DNA from: a virus
DNA: 22,302 nt
Virus genome (UHGV): UHGV-1135478
Direction: 5' to 3' (one strand)
The notes beneath the pieces were generated by a model that saw only the letters and a list, made by a program, of their open reading frames with translations, was not told where the DNA came from and searched no databases. A program made the translations under genes and the position numbers. Shown here piece by piece: positions 1,151-14,487 of the stretch; the first letter of the stretch is position 1, and every line of letters begins with the position of its first letter.

Positions 1151-9166
<8,016 letters not shown>

Positions 9167-9168
9167 TA

Positions 9169-10335
9169 ATGGCAGTAGGTGAAATTCAAATTAGTGCCTT
9201 GCCTCAAGCAGCCTTACCAATTGACCTTAGTGATATCTTCCATCTTAAGCAGGGTATTGAGGATAAGAGATGTACTCTTGAGCAATTACTTGCTCCACAC
9301 TCAAGCCTAAGAAATAACCCTCACGGTGTTACTAAAACACAAATTGGTTTAGATAATGTTATCAATGCTCTTCAGTTAGTTGCTGCAAATAACTTATCAG
9401 ATGTTGCTAATGTCACTGAGGCAAGAGCAAATCTACAGATTATGTCTTCAGAAGAGGTTAATAGCCTTGTTCAACAGCATATTAATGATAAAAGTAACCC
9501 ACACAATACAACTAAGGCACAGGTTGGTTTGAGCAATGTCCAGAACTGGGTGACATCTAACCTTTATAATGAGGATGCAGATAAGTATGCTACAGCAAGA
9601 GCAGTAAATAACTTGTACAAGGCTGTTCAGGCTTCTTATCCAGTAGGTACTATCCATCTCTCTATGAATCCTGCAAACCCTTCTACATATTTAATTTGTG
9701 GAGGTACTTGGGAGTTAGTTTCAAGAGGAAGAGCACTTGTAGGTTATGATAGTGATTCTAGGCCAGTTGGTAGTAACTTTGGCTCAAGTAGTGTTAGCTT
9801 ATCTAGTAACAACCTACCATCACATAGCCATTCAATCTACCTAACTGGTGGTGGACACACTCATGGTGCTGCTATTACTATTGATGGCTTTGATTACGGC
9901 AATAAGAGCACAAACAGTTTCGATTATGGAACAAAGACCACTAATAGCACTGGTGCTCACACCCACTCAGTGAGTGGTTCAACAAATACCACAGGTAATC
10001 ACACACATACTGTAGGTGGTCGTTATGGTGGTGACTCTATCGGTGGTAAACATCGTGTTCAGGTCTCAGGGACTGAACAGGTTTCCAGTGTAGCTGGTGA
10101 CCACTCACACGCTATTAGCGGTTCAACAAATACCACAGGTAATCACCAACACACTGTTGCAATTGGTGCTCATACCCATACTGTTGCAATTGGTGCTCAT
10201 ACCCATAAAGGCACAGTAACTTTGCAGTCATCTGAGCATACTCACTCAGGTACTACAGGTACTACAGGTGCTGGTCAAGCATTTAGCATTGAACAACCAT
10301 CCTTTGTGGTTTATGTATGGCAAAGAACCGCTTAA
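9169..10335 (+). CDS. Tail fibre protein (tail-collar-like domain + His-x-His repeat C-terminus)
   Basis: 388 aa. N-terminal repeated motif NPHxxTKxQxGLxNV (twice). Collar-like segment …CGGTWELVSRGRALVG…LSSNNLPSHSHS…. C-terminus rich in HTH/HSH/HQH motifs (GAHTHSVSGSTNTTGNHTHTVGG…). RBS AGGAG. Confidence 0.8.
   Translation: MAVGEIQISALPQAALPIDLSDIFHLKQGIEDKRCTLEQLLAPHSSLRNNPHGVTKTQIGLDNVINALQLVAANNLSDVANVTEARANLQIMSSEEVNSLVQQHINDKSNPHNTTKAQVGLSNVQNWVTSNLYNEDADKYATARAVNNLYKAVQASYPVGTIHLSMNPANPSTYLICGGTWELVSRGRALVGYDSDSRPVGSNFGSSSVSLSSNNLPSHSHSIYLTGGGHTHGAAITIDGFDYGNKSTNSFDYGTKTTNSTGAHTHSVSGSTNTTGNHTHTVGGRYGGDSIGGKHRVQVSGTEQVSSVAGDHSHAISGSTNTTGNHQHTVAIGAHTHTVAIGAHTHKGTVTLQSSEHTHSGTTGTTGAGQAFSIEQPSFVVYVWQRTA
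9916..10089 (+). repeat. Direct repeat copy 1 (shared tail-fibre C-terminal module)
   Basis: Roughly 80% nt identity by eye to 12546-12719; identical runs ACTGGTGCTCACACCCACTCAGTGAGTGGTTC (9949-9980 = 12579-12610) and TATGGTGGTGACTCTATCGGTGGTAAAC. Confidence 0.8.
10153..10206 (+). repeat. Perfect in-frame tandem duplication, 2 x 27 nt (encodes TVAIGAHTH twice)
   Basis: ACTGTTGCAATTGGTGCTCATACCCAT occurs twice back-to-back with no mismatch (10153-10179 and 10180-10206). Confidence 0.85.
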
Positions 10336-10347
10336 AAATTCTTTTAC

Positions 10348-10370
10348 AGGGGGCTGTACAGCCCTCTTTC
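10348..10370 (+). terminator. Candidate rho-independent terminator between the two fibre genes
   Basis: AGGGGGCT (10348-10355) pairs with AGCCCTCT (10360-10367), 8 bp with one G-U and loop GTAC; short T tract follows. Confidence 0.45.
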
Positions 10371-10385
10371 TAGAGGACAAAAATA

Positions 10386-12905
10386 ATGGCAGATTACAAA
10401 TTGAGTGAATTAAACTCAATCGATACAATCCGTTCAGACGACCTTCTTCATGTCAGGGTTAAAAAGAGACCTGAAATGCTGGGTGATGAAGACCGTCGAA
10501 TGACCTATCAAGACTTCTTAGCATCTTTTAAGCTTGAAAGATTTGTTCAGATTGCTGGTAGTACTATGACTGGTGACTTAGGGATTGTTAAGTTACTTTA
10601 TGGTGGTAAGGCAGTCTTTGACCCTACAGGCTCTTCTGAGATTACTATGGGGGATATTTTAAAGACTTTTAAAATTAACGCAAATGGTCTTAAATTAACT
10701 ATTGCAGATGCTTCAAGGTCAGCAACTGTTTATCATACTCTGAATAAGCCAAGTCCTAATGAGCTTGGTATGAGAACTAATGAAGAGAATGACGCAAGAT
10801 ATGCAAGACTTGCTGTTACAAACACATTCTCTGGGACTCAGAACATTCAAGGTGATGTTAACTTACTTCGCCTTAGAAACCAAAATGCAAATAATGCACA
10901 ATATATTGAAGGTGTAGACCTAGATGGCTCGGCTAGATGGTTGGTTGGTATTAGCAAAAATGGTTCTGATGCAGTGCAGTTGTACAATAACAAATATGAC
11001 TCAGCTTTGACTATTGCAAGCAATATCTCTGTGAATAAGTCTCTAGCAATCACTGGTCAAGTACAACCTTCTGACTTCTCTAACTTAGATGCTAGATACT
11101 TTACTCAGACAGCAGCTAATCAGAGATTTGCACAGTTAGCTGTTAATAACACTTTTACAGGTGCTAATACTTTCACTAACCTTGTTGTTAAGAAGAATGC
11201 TAATGCTATTACTTTGCAGAATACTGATGCAGGTACAGCACTTTATATTCTTGGTAAGAAGTCTGATGGAACAAATAAATGGTATGTTGGTACAGATTCT
11301 GATGAGACACGTCTGAATATTTATAACTACATTACAGGTTCACAGGTTTCACTAGGTACTACTGTTGGTATTAATAAAACCTTGCAAATCAATGGTCAAG
11401 TTCAACCATCTGATTGGACTAACATTGACTCTAGATATATTCCGGCAGCAACATTAAGTACAATTGCAAGAACTAATACTCTCAATACATTTTCTGTACG
11501 ACAAGTTATCAACTCTGATGGTGAAGCTCTTGCGTTAAAAGCAAAAACTGAAACGACATTGTTCATTAGGGGGTGGGCTGCTGATGGGACAGCTAAGTGG
11601 TATGTTGGTAATGGTGATGCCGATAACAATAATAACTTAAGGCTGTTTAACTACAAAACAGGTAAAGTGCTTACCATTGGCTCAACATTCGAAATGAATG
11701 CAACTTTAGCAATCACTGGGCAGGTTCAACCTTCAGATTGGTCTAACATTGATGCGAGATACTACAACAAATCATCTGCTGATAACAGATATCTGAGAGT
11801 AAGAAGCACAGATTTCAATACTAGTGGTGCTGGTAAATGGGCTAAGATTGCAACTGTGAATATGCCACAAGGCGCATCAACAGCAGTGATTGAACTGTTT
11901 GGTGGGGCTGGATTTAACTTTGGCCTAATTGACCAAGCCTGTAAGACAGAAATTGTTCTTAGGACAGGGGATGGTAACCCAAAAGGCTTAAATGTTGTTG
12001 CATGGAAAAACTCACCGAATAGTGTTGTAAGTAGAATTGGGTATGTTAATACCTCTGGTGATAACTATGACATTTATTGCGCAGTTGGTAACTATCTAGC
12101 CGCTACAACAGCTAGGGTTCAGTCAACATCTAATGCAACAGTACAACTGTTTGAGGCTCCAGAGACATCTGACAACGCTCCATCTGGCTATGTTGATGGG
12201 ACAATTGCTCACTATTACACTAGTCTCTTGAAGCCAACACCTTCAGATATTGGTGCATATACTAAATCAGAAACTGACCAGAAGATTGCACAGGCAATTA
12301 GTGACTCTACAGACCTTAATAAAATCTATCCAGTAGGTATTGTAACGTGGTTTAACAGTAATGTTAACCCTAATACCGCACTTCCTGGATTAACTTGGAC
12401 GTACCTGAACAATGGTGTAGGTAGGACAATCAGGGTTGCAGCAGCTAATGGTTCAGATGTTGCTACAACTGGAGGCTCAGATTCTGTTACGTTAGCAGTT
12501 GGAAACTTACCTTCACACACTCATAGTTTCTCTGCGACAACCTCTAGCTTTGACTACGGTACTAAAACCACTAACACTACTGGTGCTCACACCCACTCAG
12601 TGAGTGGTTCTACTAACAACACTGGTGCTCATACACATACAGTTGGTGGTCATTATGGTGGTGACTCTATCGGTGGTAAACCTCGTGTTCAGGTATTTGG
12701 TACAGAACAGGTATCTAGCTCTGCTGGTGCTCACGCTCACACTGTATCTGGTACTGCTGCCTCTAACGGAAACCATGCTCACACTGTTGGTATTGGTGCT
12801 CACAGTCATACAGTTAGTGGTAACACTGGTGGTACAGGTTCTGGTTCAGCATTTAGTGTAACTAACCAGTTCTATAAGCTGATGGCTTGGGTAAGAACTG
12901 CTTAA
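10386..12905 (+). CDS. Long tail fibre protein (internal domain repeats; collar-like + His-x-His C-terminus)
   Basis: 839 aa; RBS AGAGGA. Three to four ~110-aa internal repeats, each ending …GQVQPSD(F/W)(S/T)N(L/I)D(A/S)RY. C-terminal ~190 aa homologous to fibre 1 (…GNLPSHTHS…GAHTHSVSGSTNNTGAHTHTVGGHYGGDSIGGK…). Confidence 0.85.
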   Translation: MADYKLSELNSIDTIRSDDLLHVRVKKRPEMLGDEDRRMTYQDFLASFKLERFVQIAGSTMTGDLGIVKLLYGGKAVFDPTGSSEITMGDILKTFKINANGLKLTIADASRSATVYHTLNKPSPNELGMRTNEENDARYARLAVTNTFSGTQNIQGDVNLLRLRNQNANNAQYIEGVDLDGSARWLVGISKNGSDAVQLYNNKYDSALTIASNISVNKSLAITGQVQPSDFSNLDARYFTQTAANQRFAQLAVNNTFTGANTFTNLVVKKNANAITLQNTDAGTALYILGKKSDGTNKWYVGTDSDETRLNIYNYITGSQVSLGTTVGINKTLQINGQVQPSDWTNIDSRYIPAATLSTIARTNTLNTFSVRQVINSDGEALALKAKTETTLFIRGWAADGTAKWYVGNGDADNNNNLRLFNYKTGKVLTIGSTFEMNATLAITGQVQPSDWSNIDARYYNKSSADNRYLRVRSTDFNTSGAGKWAKIATVNMPQGASTAVIELFGGAGFNFGLIDQACKTEIVLRTGDGNPKGLNVVAWKNSPNSVVSRIGYVNTSGDNYDIYCAVGNYLAATTARVQSTSNATVQLFEAPETSDNAPSGYVDGTIAHYYTSLLKPTPSDIGAYTKSETDQKIAQAISDSTDLNKIYPVGIVTWFNSNVNPNTALPGLTWTYLNNGVGRTIRVAAANGSDVATTGGSDSVTLAVGNLPSHTHSFSATTSSFDYGTKTTNTTGAHTHSVSGSTNNTGAHTHTVGGHYGGDSIGGKPRVQVFGTEQVSSSAGAHAHTVSGTAASNGNHAHTVGIGAHSHTVSGNTGGTGSGSAFSVTNQFYKLMAWVRTA
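10773..11795 (+). repeat. Tandem ~330-nt intragenic domain repeats in the long fibre gene
   Basis: GQVQPSD motif recurs at codons 224, 337 and 445 (nt ~11055, ~11394, ~11718) with flanking KWYVG / LAVxNTF motifs; copies are diverged at nt level. Confidence 0.6.
12546..12719 (+). repeat. Direct repeat copy 2 (shared tail-fibre C-terminal module)
   Basis: Counterpart of 9916-10089; see that entry. Confidence 0.8.
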
Positions 12906-12912
12906 TCCCTTA

Positions 12913-12941
12913 TTGACTGATTGTTAAGATGGTGTTAATAT
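12913..12941 (+). promoter_or_regulatory. Sigma70-like promoter (TTGACT-N17-TAATAT)
   Basis: -35 TTGACT at 12913-12918, 17-nt spacer, -10 TAATAT at 12936-12941; 8 nt after the long-fibre stop and ~44 nt before ATG 12985. Confidence 0.55.
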
Positions 12942-12966
12942 TCTTTATGGGTATTCTCACCATCTT
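12926..12966. repeat. Perfect 9-bp inverted repeat bracketing the promoter -10 and start region (operator-like)
   Basis: AAGATGGTG (12926-12934) and CACCATCTT (12958-12966), 23-nt spacer; no T tract follows, so not a canonical terminator. Confidence 0.5.
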
Positions 12967-12984
12967 GGCTGATGAGGTGATTAA

Positions 12985-13179
12985 ATGCCTACAATCCTAG
13001 CAATTCTCCTAAAAAATCTAGGTAGCTTCTTCTGGAAACTCATTTTATCCCTTCTAAGTGAATACATGATTGAGAAAGTGTTCTTTAAGCTTGCAAGATA
13101 CCTTGCGGGTAAGACAGACACACCTATTGATGATGAGTTCGTAGATAACTTAGAAAAAGCTTTTAAGGGGGAGAAATAA
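12985..13179 (+). CDS. Small membrane-associated protein (holin-like or exclusion-type; function unknown)
   Basis: 64 aa; hydrophobic N-terminal half (ILAILLKNLGSFFWKLILSLL) and charged C-terminus; RBS GAGGTG 5 nt before ATG. Confidence 0.5.
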   Translation: MPTILAILLKNLGSFFWKLILSLLSEYMIEKVFFKLARYLAGKTDTPIDDEFVDNLEKAFKGEK

Positions 13180-13545
13180 ATGAAGTGGCTAGAGGAAGCT
13201 TTTAAAAATAATATTGGTGCAATTGTTGTTGGTATTTTTAGTGTTATTGGGATGTATACCACGATGCAAGTTTCAAGTGGTAAGCAAGAAGTGTCTGTCA
13301 CAACAAAGTTACAGCAGCTAGATAATTATTCCAGAAGTAACTATTCAGCTATTCGTGATTTACAGTCTGACATGAGACTGATTCAGCTAGGGATGGAGAA
13401 CCAGAAAGTTCAGTTAGAGAATGTTAAGGGTGAAAACGCAAAACTTACCAGAACCCTTGATAAATTCTCTGACAGTGTAAATAATCTGGCTCAATCAGTA
13501 TCAGCCCTCCAAGCTATTACTGAGAAGAACACAAAAGAACACTGA
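13180..13545 (+). CDS. Membrane-anchored coiled-coil protein (i-spanin-like topology; function unknown)
   Basis: 121 aa; one N-terminal transmembrane segment (IGAIVVGIFSVIGMYTTM) then a heptad-like polar/charged region; RBS GGGGGAG; start overlaps preceding stop (TAAATG). Confidence 0.5.
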   Translation: MKWLEEAFKNNIGAIVVGIFSVIGMYTTMQVSSGKQEVSVTTKLQQLDNYSRSNYSAIRDLQSDMRLIQLGMENQKVQLENVKGENAKLTRTLDKFSDSVNNLAQSVSALQAITEKNTKEH

Positions 13546-13557
13546 AAATAAAATTTT

Positions 13558-13581
13558 AAGGCTCCTTTTTACGGGAGCCTT
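13558..13581. terminator. Bidirectional intrinsic terminator at the convergent junction
   Basis: AAGGCTCC (13558-13565) pairs with GGAGCCTT (13574-13581), loop TTTTTACG; T-rich 3' on the + strand and U-rich on the - strand; between stop 13545 (+) and stop 13588 (-). Confidence 0.65.
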
Positions 13582-13587
13582 TTTGTT

Positions 13588-14487
13588 TTACTTACCTACT
13601 GACAAAGGTGCTTCAATCTTCCCTGCGTGTTTGTAGTTGTTAATACCACCAATAAAATCACTCGCAGTAAGGTGTTTTAGGTCACTTAGCGTGTTAAGTG
13701 GTAGACCAATCTCAAAAGTTGGTGCATGGAACTCTTCATTATTCATCAATTCATAAACCTGCTTCATATGGTTCTGATAAATCTGAGTATCCCCAAAGAC
13801 ACCTATCAAGTATCGTGGAGTGTACCCAGTCATCTTGCAAAGTACTTCCAGAATAAAACCATAAGATGCAATGTTAAACGGAAGTCCTAAAAAGGTGTCT
13901 ACAGAACGTTGATACCATTGTAAGTCAACTTCACCCTCGTTAGTGATATAAATCTGAAACAGAACATGACAAGGTGCTAAAGCCATCGAGTTGGATGCAA
14001 TATCTGCTGCATTCCAAGCATTAACAAGCATGTAGCGGTCTGTGATATCACCTTTCATCTTCGTTACTAAGGTCTCTAACTGGTCTACAACACAACCATT
14101 ATGACCTTCAAAGTTTCTCCACTGAACCCCGTAGATTCTCCCACCTGCATCTTCTAACCAATCTTGTTCAGAAGAATAATTAGAGCTTAACCAGCGTTTA
14201 AAATCATCTGACCAGATAGTCCAGCGTTCTCCATCATTTTCACCCCAAGTACGGTAACGGAGTTCACCAAGTTTATTCTCACCGTTCAGGAACCATAAAG
14301 CTTCCCCAATAACTTGCCGTGTAAACACCTGTTTAGATGTTAAGAGTGGGAAACCAGTACGCATATCAAAACGAAATTGTGGTGGAGCGAATGCAGAGAT
14401 AACATCTCCAGTTCGTGCAGTACGCAGTTCACCAACGGATAAAACATGGTTCAGGATATTTTTGTAACTTGAATCTGCTTGTGACAT
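13588..14487 (-). CDS. thyA: Thymidylate synthase
   Basis: Active-site region …PCHVLFQIYI…QWYQRSVDTFLGLPFNIASYGFILEVLCKMTGY…GDTQIYQNHM… matches the ThyA signature. Start set to ATG 14485-14487 (MSQADSS…) just downstream of the DHFR stop, rather than the upstream alternative start in the ORF track. Confidence 0.9.
   Translation of the reverse strand: MSQADSSYKNILNHVLSVGELRTARTGDVISAFAPPQFRFDMRTGFPLLTSKQVFTRQVIGEALWFLNGENKLGELRYRTWGENDGERWTIWSDDFKRWLSSNYSSEQDWLEDAGGRIYGVQWRNFEGHNGCVVDQLETLVTKMKGDITDRYMLVNAWNAADIASNSMALAPCHVLFQIYITNEGEVDLQWYQRSVDTFLGLPFNIASYGFILEVLCKMTGYTPRYLIGVFGDTQIYQNHMKQVYELMNNEEFHAPTFEIGLPLNTLSDLKHLTASDFIGGINNYKHAGKIEAPLSVGK

Follow-up and report, generated by a model that had tools for sequence, protein, structure and literature searches.

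Homologous T4 gp37-like tips on the two tail fibres of a Felix O1-type phage, and the signature of gene conversion between them

The stretch of DNA analysed here, UHGV virus genome UHGV-1135478 (22,302 nt, hereafter the window), carries two tail-fibre genes whose C-terminal ends are related to each other and share a direct repeat. On its sequence, the window can be assigned to a Felix O1-type myovirus (Ounavirinae, Felixounavirus), and spans the tail, baseplate and fibre module together with part of the early region. The gene products run in the order tape measure (742 amino acids, aa), hub (325 aa), two wedge proteins (489 and 285 aa), a 100-aa protein, and fibres of 388 and 839 aa. Both order and sizes agree with the annotated records of phages Mushroom and Felix O1. 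They also agree with the cryo-electron microscopy (cryo-EM) assignment of phage Bas63, which comprises wedge 2 (489 aa) and wedge 1 (285 aa; gp23 and gp24), a long tail fibre (LTF) platform, the short tail fibre (STF) gp26 and the LTF gp27. Because of this synteny and agreement in size, the gene at 9169-10335 is named the STF gene and that at 10386-12905 the LTF gene.

The fibre genes and their tips

The features on which the argument depends are the following.

9169-10335, plus strand: STF gene (388 aa), an open reading frame (ORF) annotated 'tail fiber protein' in Mushroom and Felix O1; equivalents Felix O1 ORF76 and Bas63 gp26
10386-12905, plus strand: LTF gene (839 aa), an ORF; equivalents Felix O1 ORF77 and Bas63 gp27
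9637-10332, plus strand: predicted receptor-binding tip of the STF (aa 157-388), with collar, His-x-His (HxH) needle (9 HxH) and head; phmmer against PDB 2XGF, Pfam Gp10_C
12327-12902, plus strand: predicted receptor-binding tip of the LTF (aa 648-839), with collar, HxH needle (6 HxH) and head; phmmer against PDB 2XGF, alignment to the STF
9916-10113, plus strand: repeat copy 1, STF aa 250-315 (SFDYGTK...AGDHSH), putative conversion tract; repeat search, register scan, 16-genome comparison
12546-12743, plus strand: repeat copy 2, LTF aa 721-786, including the patch at 12713-12737 that differs in Mushroom; same three analyses
10012-10086, plus strand: head-coding segment of the STF (aa 282-306, VGGRYGGDSIGGKHRVQVSGTEQVS), presumed receptor contact surface; aligned to T4 gp37 residues ~932-959
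12642-12716, plus strand: head-coding segment of the LTF (aa 753-777, VGGHYGGDSIGGKPRVQVFGTEQVS); aligned to T4 gp37 residues ~932-959, head pS (synonymous divergence) 0.33
10114-10200, plus strand: ascending needle strand of the STF, 3' of the repeat and not homogenised; its LTF homologue lies at 12744-12830

In a nucleotide search with the whole fibre region (9169-12905), Salmonella phages SPT-1 and SBA-1781 match at 99.4% identity, the GEC_vB phages at 99.3% and Mushroom at 98.7%. Pfam finds three gp37_trimer units (E=4.9e-64) and Phage_fiber in the LTF, and its orthologue in Felix O1, gp77, has been detected in virions by mass spectrometry (PMC3185647). Against the crystallised tip of T4 gp37 (PDB 2XGF, residues 785-1026), phmmer aligns STF aa 146-359 to chain residues 18-227 (E=9.6e-25) and LTF aa 708-818 to chain residues 104-218 (E=5.1e-13). 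The STF collar is recognised by Pfam Gp10_C with 63.5 bits (cut-off 27), and T4 gp10 structures match it at 6e-8; the LTF collar scores 23.6 bits, under the same cut-off, yet aligns with that of the STF (YPVG...NLPSH[ST]HS). HxH motifs, nine in the STF (aa 219-357) and six in the LTF (aa 711-806), flank the head on either side and are matched in the alignment by those of gp37. By these alignments, both C-termini can be assigned as T4 gp37-type receptor-binding tips composed of a collar, an HxH needle and a head; metal binding by the histidines and a trimeric fold would follow by analogy with the T4 and Bas63 structures. The resemblance itself is known: Felix O1 gp76 and gp77 both resemble the gp37 C-terminus (Whichard et al. 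2010, PMC3185647), both Bas63 fibres have collar, needle and head by cryo-EM in 2025 (PMC12609058), and two fibres with gp37-like and gp10-like elements are described for phage Sf14 (PMC11821841). A gp37-like tip on both fibres is thus an architecture already published (PMC3185647; PMC12609058).

The two tips are homologous to one another as well as to gp37. In BLASTP, the 388-aa and 839-aa products are identical at 99 of 185 positions (54%, E=6e-49; STF 157-339 against LTF 648-810), and MAFFT carries the homology to both C-termini, ...WQRTA and ...WVRTA, so that the homologous tip measures ~232 aa in the STF and 192 aa in the LTF. The protein-level significance of this homology is overwhelming. 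Relative to the LTF, the STF has a 21-aa insert before the repeat and ~20 more residues after it. At the DNA level, the repeat search of the window returned one gapless direct-repeat family here, of 198 nt with 81% identity and a spacing of 2630 nt (9916-10113 and 12546-12743). An earlier note, made from the letters of this DNA alone, had described the two C-termini as homologous receptor-binding modules with a core of 174 nt at roughly 80% identity and identical runs of 32 and 28 nt. The homology is borne out by both self-comparison and pairwise protein alignment, every protein motif that it quoted is present in the translations, and its core is recovered as the longer 198-nt repeat. The 32-nt run lies at 9949-9980 as described, while the second (10023-10051) has 29 nt, not 28. 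Identity in the same register falls to 10-35%, the level expected by chance, beyond about 9900-10185.

On the descending side the repeat encodes the final two HxH motifs; it then takes in the entire head and, on the ascending side, the first HxH. It aligns with gp37 residues about 899-966, which include the head at 929-959. STF 282-306 and LTF 753-777 share the pattern VGG[RH]YGGDSIGGK.RVQV.GTEQVS, placed opposite gp37 ~932-959 between H929/H931 and the next HxH. In T4, residues 929-959 of gp37 form the surface that contacts lipopolysaccharide (LPS) and OmpC (PMC6957217), and by analogy the head residues of the window are presumed to contact the receptor. This reading is supported by the hypervariability of the segment and by the way in which head type tracks Salmonella hosts, both described below.

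Shorter repeats are also found in the two genes. In the STF, 9950-10013 and 10094-10157 (64 nt, 81%) form an internal repeat in which the ascending strand GDHSHAISGSTNTTGNHQHTV repeats the descending GAHTHSVSGSTNTTGNHTHTV, and 10150-10176 and 10177-10203 form a 27-nt tandem unit (96%) coding HTHTVAIGA twice; these are further short homologies inside the needle. The LTF shaft contains three diverged direct repeats (11032-11127, 11371-11466 and 11695-11790; 60-72% identity, period ~330 nt), which correspond to the three Pfam gp37_trimer units. Downstream of the fibre genes, a GC-rich hairpin with T-runs on both strands (13558-13581) separates the rightward late (fibre) genes from a leftward thymidylate synthase gene and is likely, on its sequence, to be a bidirectional terminator. 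A promoter and terminator scan of 9000-13700 found nothing beyond shuffled expectation except this hairpin.

Probable exchange between the copies, and the distribution of heads

The relationship between the two repeat copies was analysed in 16 Felix O1-clade genomes that carry the head in both fibres. Across the 198-nt core, not a single fixed difference separates the STF from the LTF copies, and 41 polymorphisms are shared between them. The next 87 nt, homologous and in register (10114-10200 in the STF), hold 22 fixed differences and eight shared polymorphisms, with a pS of 0.76 and a non-synonymous divergence (dN) of 0.32. On the other side, the 21-codon insert of the STF upstream of 9916 breaks the register of the paralogues, and therefore gives the tract a sharp 5' edge. 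Of the 41 shared polymorphisms, 29 affect the third base of a codon and 13 occur where the encoded amino acid is constant; convergence at the protein level is therefore no explanation for them.

Long identical tracts tell the same story within single genomes. The longest STF/LTF tract ranges from 18 to 189 nt: it reaches 189 nt in BPS17L1, whose copies are identical at every synonymous site across it and 98.5% identical over the core, 113 nt in UAB_Phi87 and UAB_69, 59 nt in BPS15Q2, 51 nt in Felix O1 and 32 nt in the window. A GENECONV-like permutation gave p<=0.005 in eight of the 16 genomes and 0.0052 in a ninth (SeKF_63). In the table of variable sites, LTF-type patches occur in STF copies and vice versa. 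Between lineages, the LTF core of NBSal004 and the STF core of locus L005 share 92% identity. When the window is compared with Mushroom over both fibre genes (3737 nt), all 50 differences fall within 12022-12785. Thirty-three of them lie at 12291-12563, in or just before the collar, and resemble an allelic swap. A further 11 lie at 12713-12737, where the Mushroom LTF allele equals the STF copy at all 11 sites; we read this as a fresh ectopic patch between phages that are 98.7% identical.

The possibility that homogenised tracts are artefacts of short-read sequencing was considered and rejected. Felix O1 (AF320576), an entry that predates short-read sequencing and is inferred to be of Sanger origin, has its 51-nt tract with 88% identity, and the BPS17L1-type sequence recurs in isolates from three countries. 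Taken together, the sequence patterns point to recurrent ectopic gene conversion of the core in the Felix O1 clade; the signature of conversion is plain in the alignments, as are the homology and the domain assignment made by alignment. Nothing relevant to gene conversion in Felixounavirus emerged from a search of the literature.

The proposal of the earlier note that sequence has moved between the two tips is therefore upheld by the core polymorphisms, the long tracts and the Mushroom patch, although the details differ. The unit exchanged is not the collar plus HxH module that it had named, but the 198-nt piece with two descending HxH, the head and the first ascending HxH; the collars have ~35% protein identity and are saturated at synonymous sites (synonymous divergence, dS, 0.83). 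Nor do breakpoints cluster near 9949-9980 and 12579-12610, where it had expected them: comparison with related genomes shows them scattered through the core. Its suggestion that the exchange was recent holds for the clade and for the LTF tip in close relatives, but not for the bulk of the window's own repeat, given the core pS of 0.51.

Several observations weigh against homogenisation followed by a shared function, and the window itself supplies the first. In degree of homogenisation its copies rank near the bottom of the 16 genomes, with 81% identity, that same core pS and a run test (permutation on polymorphic sites, for the window's identical runs alone) of p=0.03, uncorrected. Synonymous divergence in the window is 0.65 in the 5' half of the repeat and 0.33 in the head, the lowest of the tip segments, and with a core dN of 0.09 most of the 81% identity therefore reflects conserved amino acids. 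Across the clade, STF/LTF identity within genomes is barely above that between genomes (0.841 against 0.826, p=0.011). The gap is so small that exchange during co-infection is inseparable from strictly intragenomic conversion, and mixed infection is as plausible a setting as a single genome. In addition, the two heads of several phages differ at three to six residues, in the window for example K-H/P-R and S/F at VQV-x-G.

To place these heads in a wider setting, loci were gathered from 29 Felixounavirus genomes in IMG/VR and 14 in GenBank, and conservation profiles were made of 42 STF and 42 LTF tips. Two tips are present in every Felixounavirus examined. Conserved arms (>=80-90% in 42 genomes) surround a hypervariable head: upstream the collar, SFDYGTK and the first HxH, and downstream HTV.IGAH.H to the C-terminus. 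The head is the least conserved segment among the 42 STFs. At least eight unrelated head types occur and reassort between genomes; in locus L016, for example, the STF has the head seen in the STF of L013, and the LTF the head seen in the LTF of L008. Among the 29 IMG/VR relatives, the same head is found on both fibres in the Felix O1 clade only, which includes the window, Mushroom, Felix O1, Si3, UAB_Phi87, BPS17L1 and others. Outside it, mostly in phages of E. coli or Shigella, the STF and LTF heads are mutually unrelated, and the BPS17W1 group (L021) has the Felix O1-type head in the STF only. In the E. coli Felixounaviruses L007 and L009, the LTF head is nearly that of T4 gp37 (HSHYIEAWNGTG.GG.KMSSYA.SYR.GGSNTNAAGNHSH) and the STF head is unrelated.

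Of the 86 phage records that contain the head peptide, 80 are named for Salmonella, whereas the whole fibre region finds matches in 118 Escherichia and 80 Salmonella records. This Felix O1-type head (NNTGAHTHTVGGRYGGDSIGGKQRVQVSGTNQVSSSAGAHAHTV) is also found, behind a T4-type collar, in the fibre of STYP1, a P2-like phage of Salmonella Typhi (Peduovirus; L095 956-2773), and in gp37 of the T4-like Escherichia phage PTE-Eco15 (L096 870-3773), in both with ~78% nucleotide identity over the head. Its presence on P2-like and T4-like backbones implies that the head cassette moves between phage families. Separately, the record GU169904.1, 'Staphylococcus phage SA1', and two 'Campylobacter' records contain this Felixounavirus fibre region at 88% identity; entries named for such non-enterobacterial hosts are probably contaminated or mislabelled.

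Two other histories might have produced a pair of similar heads. In one, an ancient duplication was followed by purifying selection only, the similarity coming from constraint on the protein with no movement of DNA. The window could be read in this way, as its dN of 0.09 stands against a core pS of 0.51, its copies differ at each third base of the stretch coding SFDYGTKT, 5' in the repeat, and its run test is of marginal significance. Selection on the protein would not, however, leave a core with no fixed differences and 41 shared polymorphisms, many of them synonymous, or perfect tracts of the length seen in BPS17L1 (189 nt) and UAB_Phi87 (113 nt). Nor are the heads made alike by constraint, since those of the two fibres are wholly unrelated in Felixounaviruses beyond the Felix O1 clade, and we regard this history as highly improbable. 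In the other, each fibre independently took the same head cassette from outside donors (Felixounaviruses, P2-like or T4-like phages) by way of the HxH arms, with no transfer from short to long. The occurrence of the head in STYP1 and PTE-Eco15 is in keeping with such donors, as are the free reassortment of head types exemplified by L016 and the 92% identity of the NBSal004 LTF core to the L005 STF core. Yet the outside copies have just ~78% DNA identity over the head, whereas the STF and LTF copies of a single genome agree at every position over tracts of 51-189 nt, the boundaries of which coincide exactly with the points where the two genes go out of register, and the Mushroom patch equals that phage's own STF copy at 11 of 11 sites. 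Capture from outside on both sides is accordingly an improbable account of the whole.

We consider it probable, from the sequence comparisons above, that the tips are old paralogues of gp37 type which have come to carry one shared head in the Felix O1 clade, with the core recurrently homogenised by ectopic gene conversion and with the same receptor as the likely target of both. According to this model, both genes would give trimeric fibres, each ending in a gp37-type tip with a collar, a metal-held HxH beta-needle and a chain-reversing head. The two tips would descend from an old duplication, and in the Salmonella-infecting Felix O1 clade one head type would have come to occupy both fibres. 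The segment of needle and head would then be homogenised patchwise and repeatedly by ectopic homologous recombination, either within one genome or between co-infecting relatives, with the tracts limited by the 21-codon indel on the 5' side and by diverged sequence on the 3' side. As a consequence, both fibres would recognise the same receptor. The known receptor of Felix O1 is the N-acetylglucosamine (GlcNAc) branch of the Salmonella LPS outer core, and this is the structure that we infer both heads would bind. More tentatively, the two tips may behave as a linked pair that conversion resets to one head, so that adaptive variants are copied across; such coupling could aid the broad Salmonella host range of Felix O1 and occasionally yield viable phages with the short fibre only, a possibility that we put forward as a speculation.

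Genome records without the long-fibre body

Each repeat copy starts at codon position 1 of its own gene, and a crossover in register would therefore give an in-frame fusion of the short-fibre N-terminus to the long-fibre tip, as the earlier note had foreseen. Three GenBank 'complete genomes' lack the LTF body, with the junction or the end of the record in the 198-nt repeat: Meda, vB_Si_35FD and SWJM-02. The predicted fusion is thus present in public records, but these look like assembly artefacts and are not proven deletion variants. Meda (MH586731; L086 3254-4360) has a single in-frame fibre gene of 368 aa followed by small downstream ORFs; compared with BPS17L1, its sequence is of STF type alone before the repeat, matches without a difference across the 189 nt of the perfect repeat, and is of LTF type alone beyond it. 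The second, vB_Si_35FD (MZ327261; L094 3501-4703), has one fusion gene, coding for 400 aa, in which 96 nt at the junction are duplicated perfectly in tandem. The record of SWJM-02 (OQ594353; L097/L098) is linear, with 84,679 bp; its ends lie one in the STF head and the other in the LTF head and overlap by 15 nt in the register of the repeat, and the LTF body is absent.

It is rather unlikely, in our view, that the direct repeat has driven a real deletion in at least one of these three phages, making it a natural variant without an LTF. A perfect repeat of 189 nt is a good substrate for recombination, and what would be expected of a BPS17L1-like parent is what Meda has: one in-frame gene that switches from STF to LTF exactly across that repeat. 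The single fusion gene of vB_Si_35FD and the missing LTF body of SWJM-02 could be explained likewise. Against this, the closure primers of Meda flank the repeat, mapping to window positions 9752 and 12761-12781 (primers and SPAdes contig are given in the methods of PMC6486253). The contig therefore ended inside or next to the repeat, where a true single-copy junction would fall by coincidence with a chance of ~0.5%. The Meda junction measures 400 bp, as collapse of the repeat or template switching in the polymerase chain reaction would give; a two-fibre genome would yield a product of ~3 kb. The ends of SWJM-02 inside the head-coding repeat and the tandem duplication of vB_Si_35FD also speak against real deletions. 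The linear records of SUT_S820 and SUT_S920 likewise start at core position 2, and that of pSJ21 starts within 171 nt of the core, which suggests that contigs often break at the repeat. A contiguous fusion is found in only 2 of 232 matching records. Artefacts of assembly or finishing caused by the repeat are thus the most likely origin of all three records. The PhageMaP essentiality paper on Bas63 makes no statement on the fibre genes.

These observations have practical consequences, as Felix O1-type phages are employed to type Salmonella and as agents of biocontrol and therapy. Short-read assemblies break at the repeat, and it is precisely there that the LTF gene is missing from no fewer than three GenBank entries labelled 'complete'. 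Anyone who compares genomes or selects phages for therapy can be misled by such records. Furthermore, if one head is common to both tips and sequence passes between them, the tips must be handled as a coupled pair when host range is engineered or resistance studied.

Comparison with known systems

The tip of T4 gp37 (PDB 2XGF; Bartual et al. 2010, as cited in PMC12609058) has the same layout of collar, HxH needle and head as the tips of the window, although the head sequences are unrelated. In T4, the tip sits on a fibre built of four proteins (gp34-37), whereas the tips described here sit on single-protein fibres, and the window differs from T4 in having two paralogous copies of the tip in one genome. 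No gp38-type adhesin gene follows the LTF gene in the annotated relatives, where small hypothetical ORFs and a holin gene are found instead, the downstream ORFs having had no chaperone-specific search.

Closer relatives are the fibres of Bas63 (JohannRWettstein; gp26/gp27) and Sf14 (gp52/gp53), phages of Felixounavirus and Mooglevirus. These fibres, resolved by cryo-EM in both phages, are orthologous to those of the window and follow the wedge proteins in the same order (PMC12609058; PMC11821841). Both fibres of these phages are reported to have a gp37-like collar, needle and head with six to seven HxH; the STF of the window has nine. High variability of the tips has been noted for Bas63 and for Sf14 (PMC12609058; PMC11821841). 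Neither paper reports a shared head on both fibres or exchange between the tips, whereas the heads of the window are of one type. What is added here to the published architecture is modest: the signature of conversion, a head that both fibres share specifically in Salmonella phages, and a hazard for assembly.

The conserved motifs of T4 gp37 are known as 'His boxes'. In T-even phages, short conserved motifs serve as sites of recombination that exchanges the specificity of adhesins (Tetart et al. 1998, as cited in PMC3157838), and duplications of a small gp37 domain expand the host range (Tetart et al. 1996, as cited in PMC3157838). A literature search found no experimental Felixounavirus recombinants with switched host range. 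The likeness to the T-even system lies in conserved arms that flank a hypervariable specificity segment, and in the appearance of the same cassette on unrelated backbones. The locus is, in this respect, textbook modular evolution of tail fibres with no new mechanism, and T-even adhesin swapping between conserved motifs is the closest known process. The partners in T-even phages are alleles in different phages, whereas here they are paralogues 2.6 kb apart in one genome, an arrangement in which exchange leads to concerted evolution.

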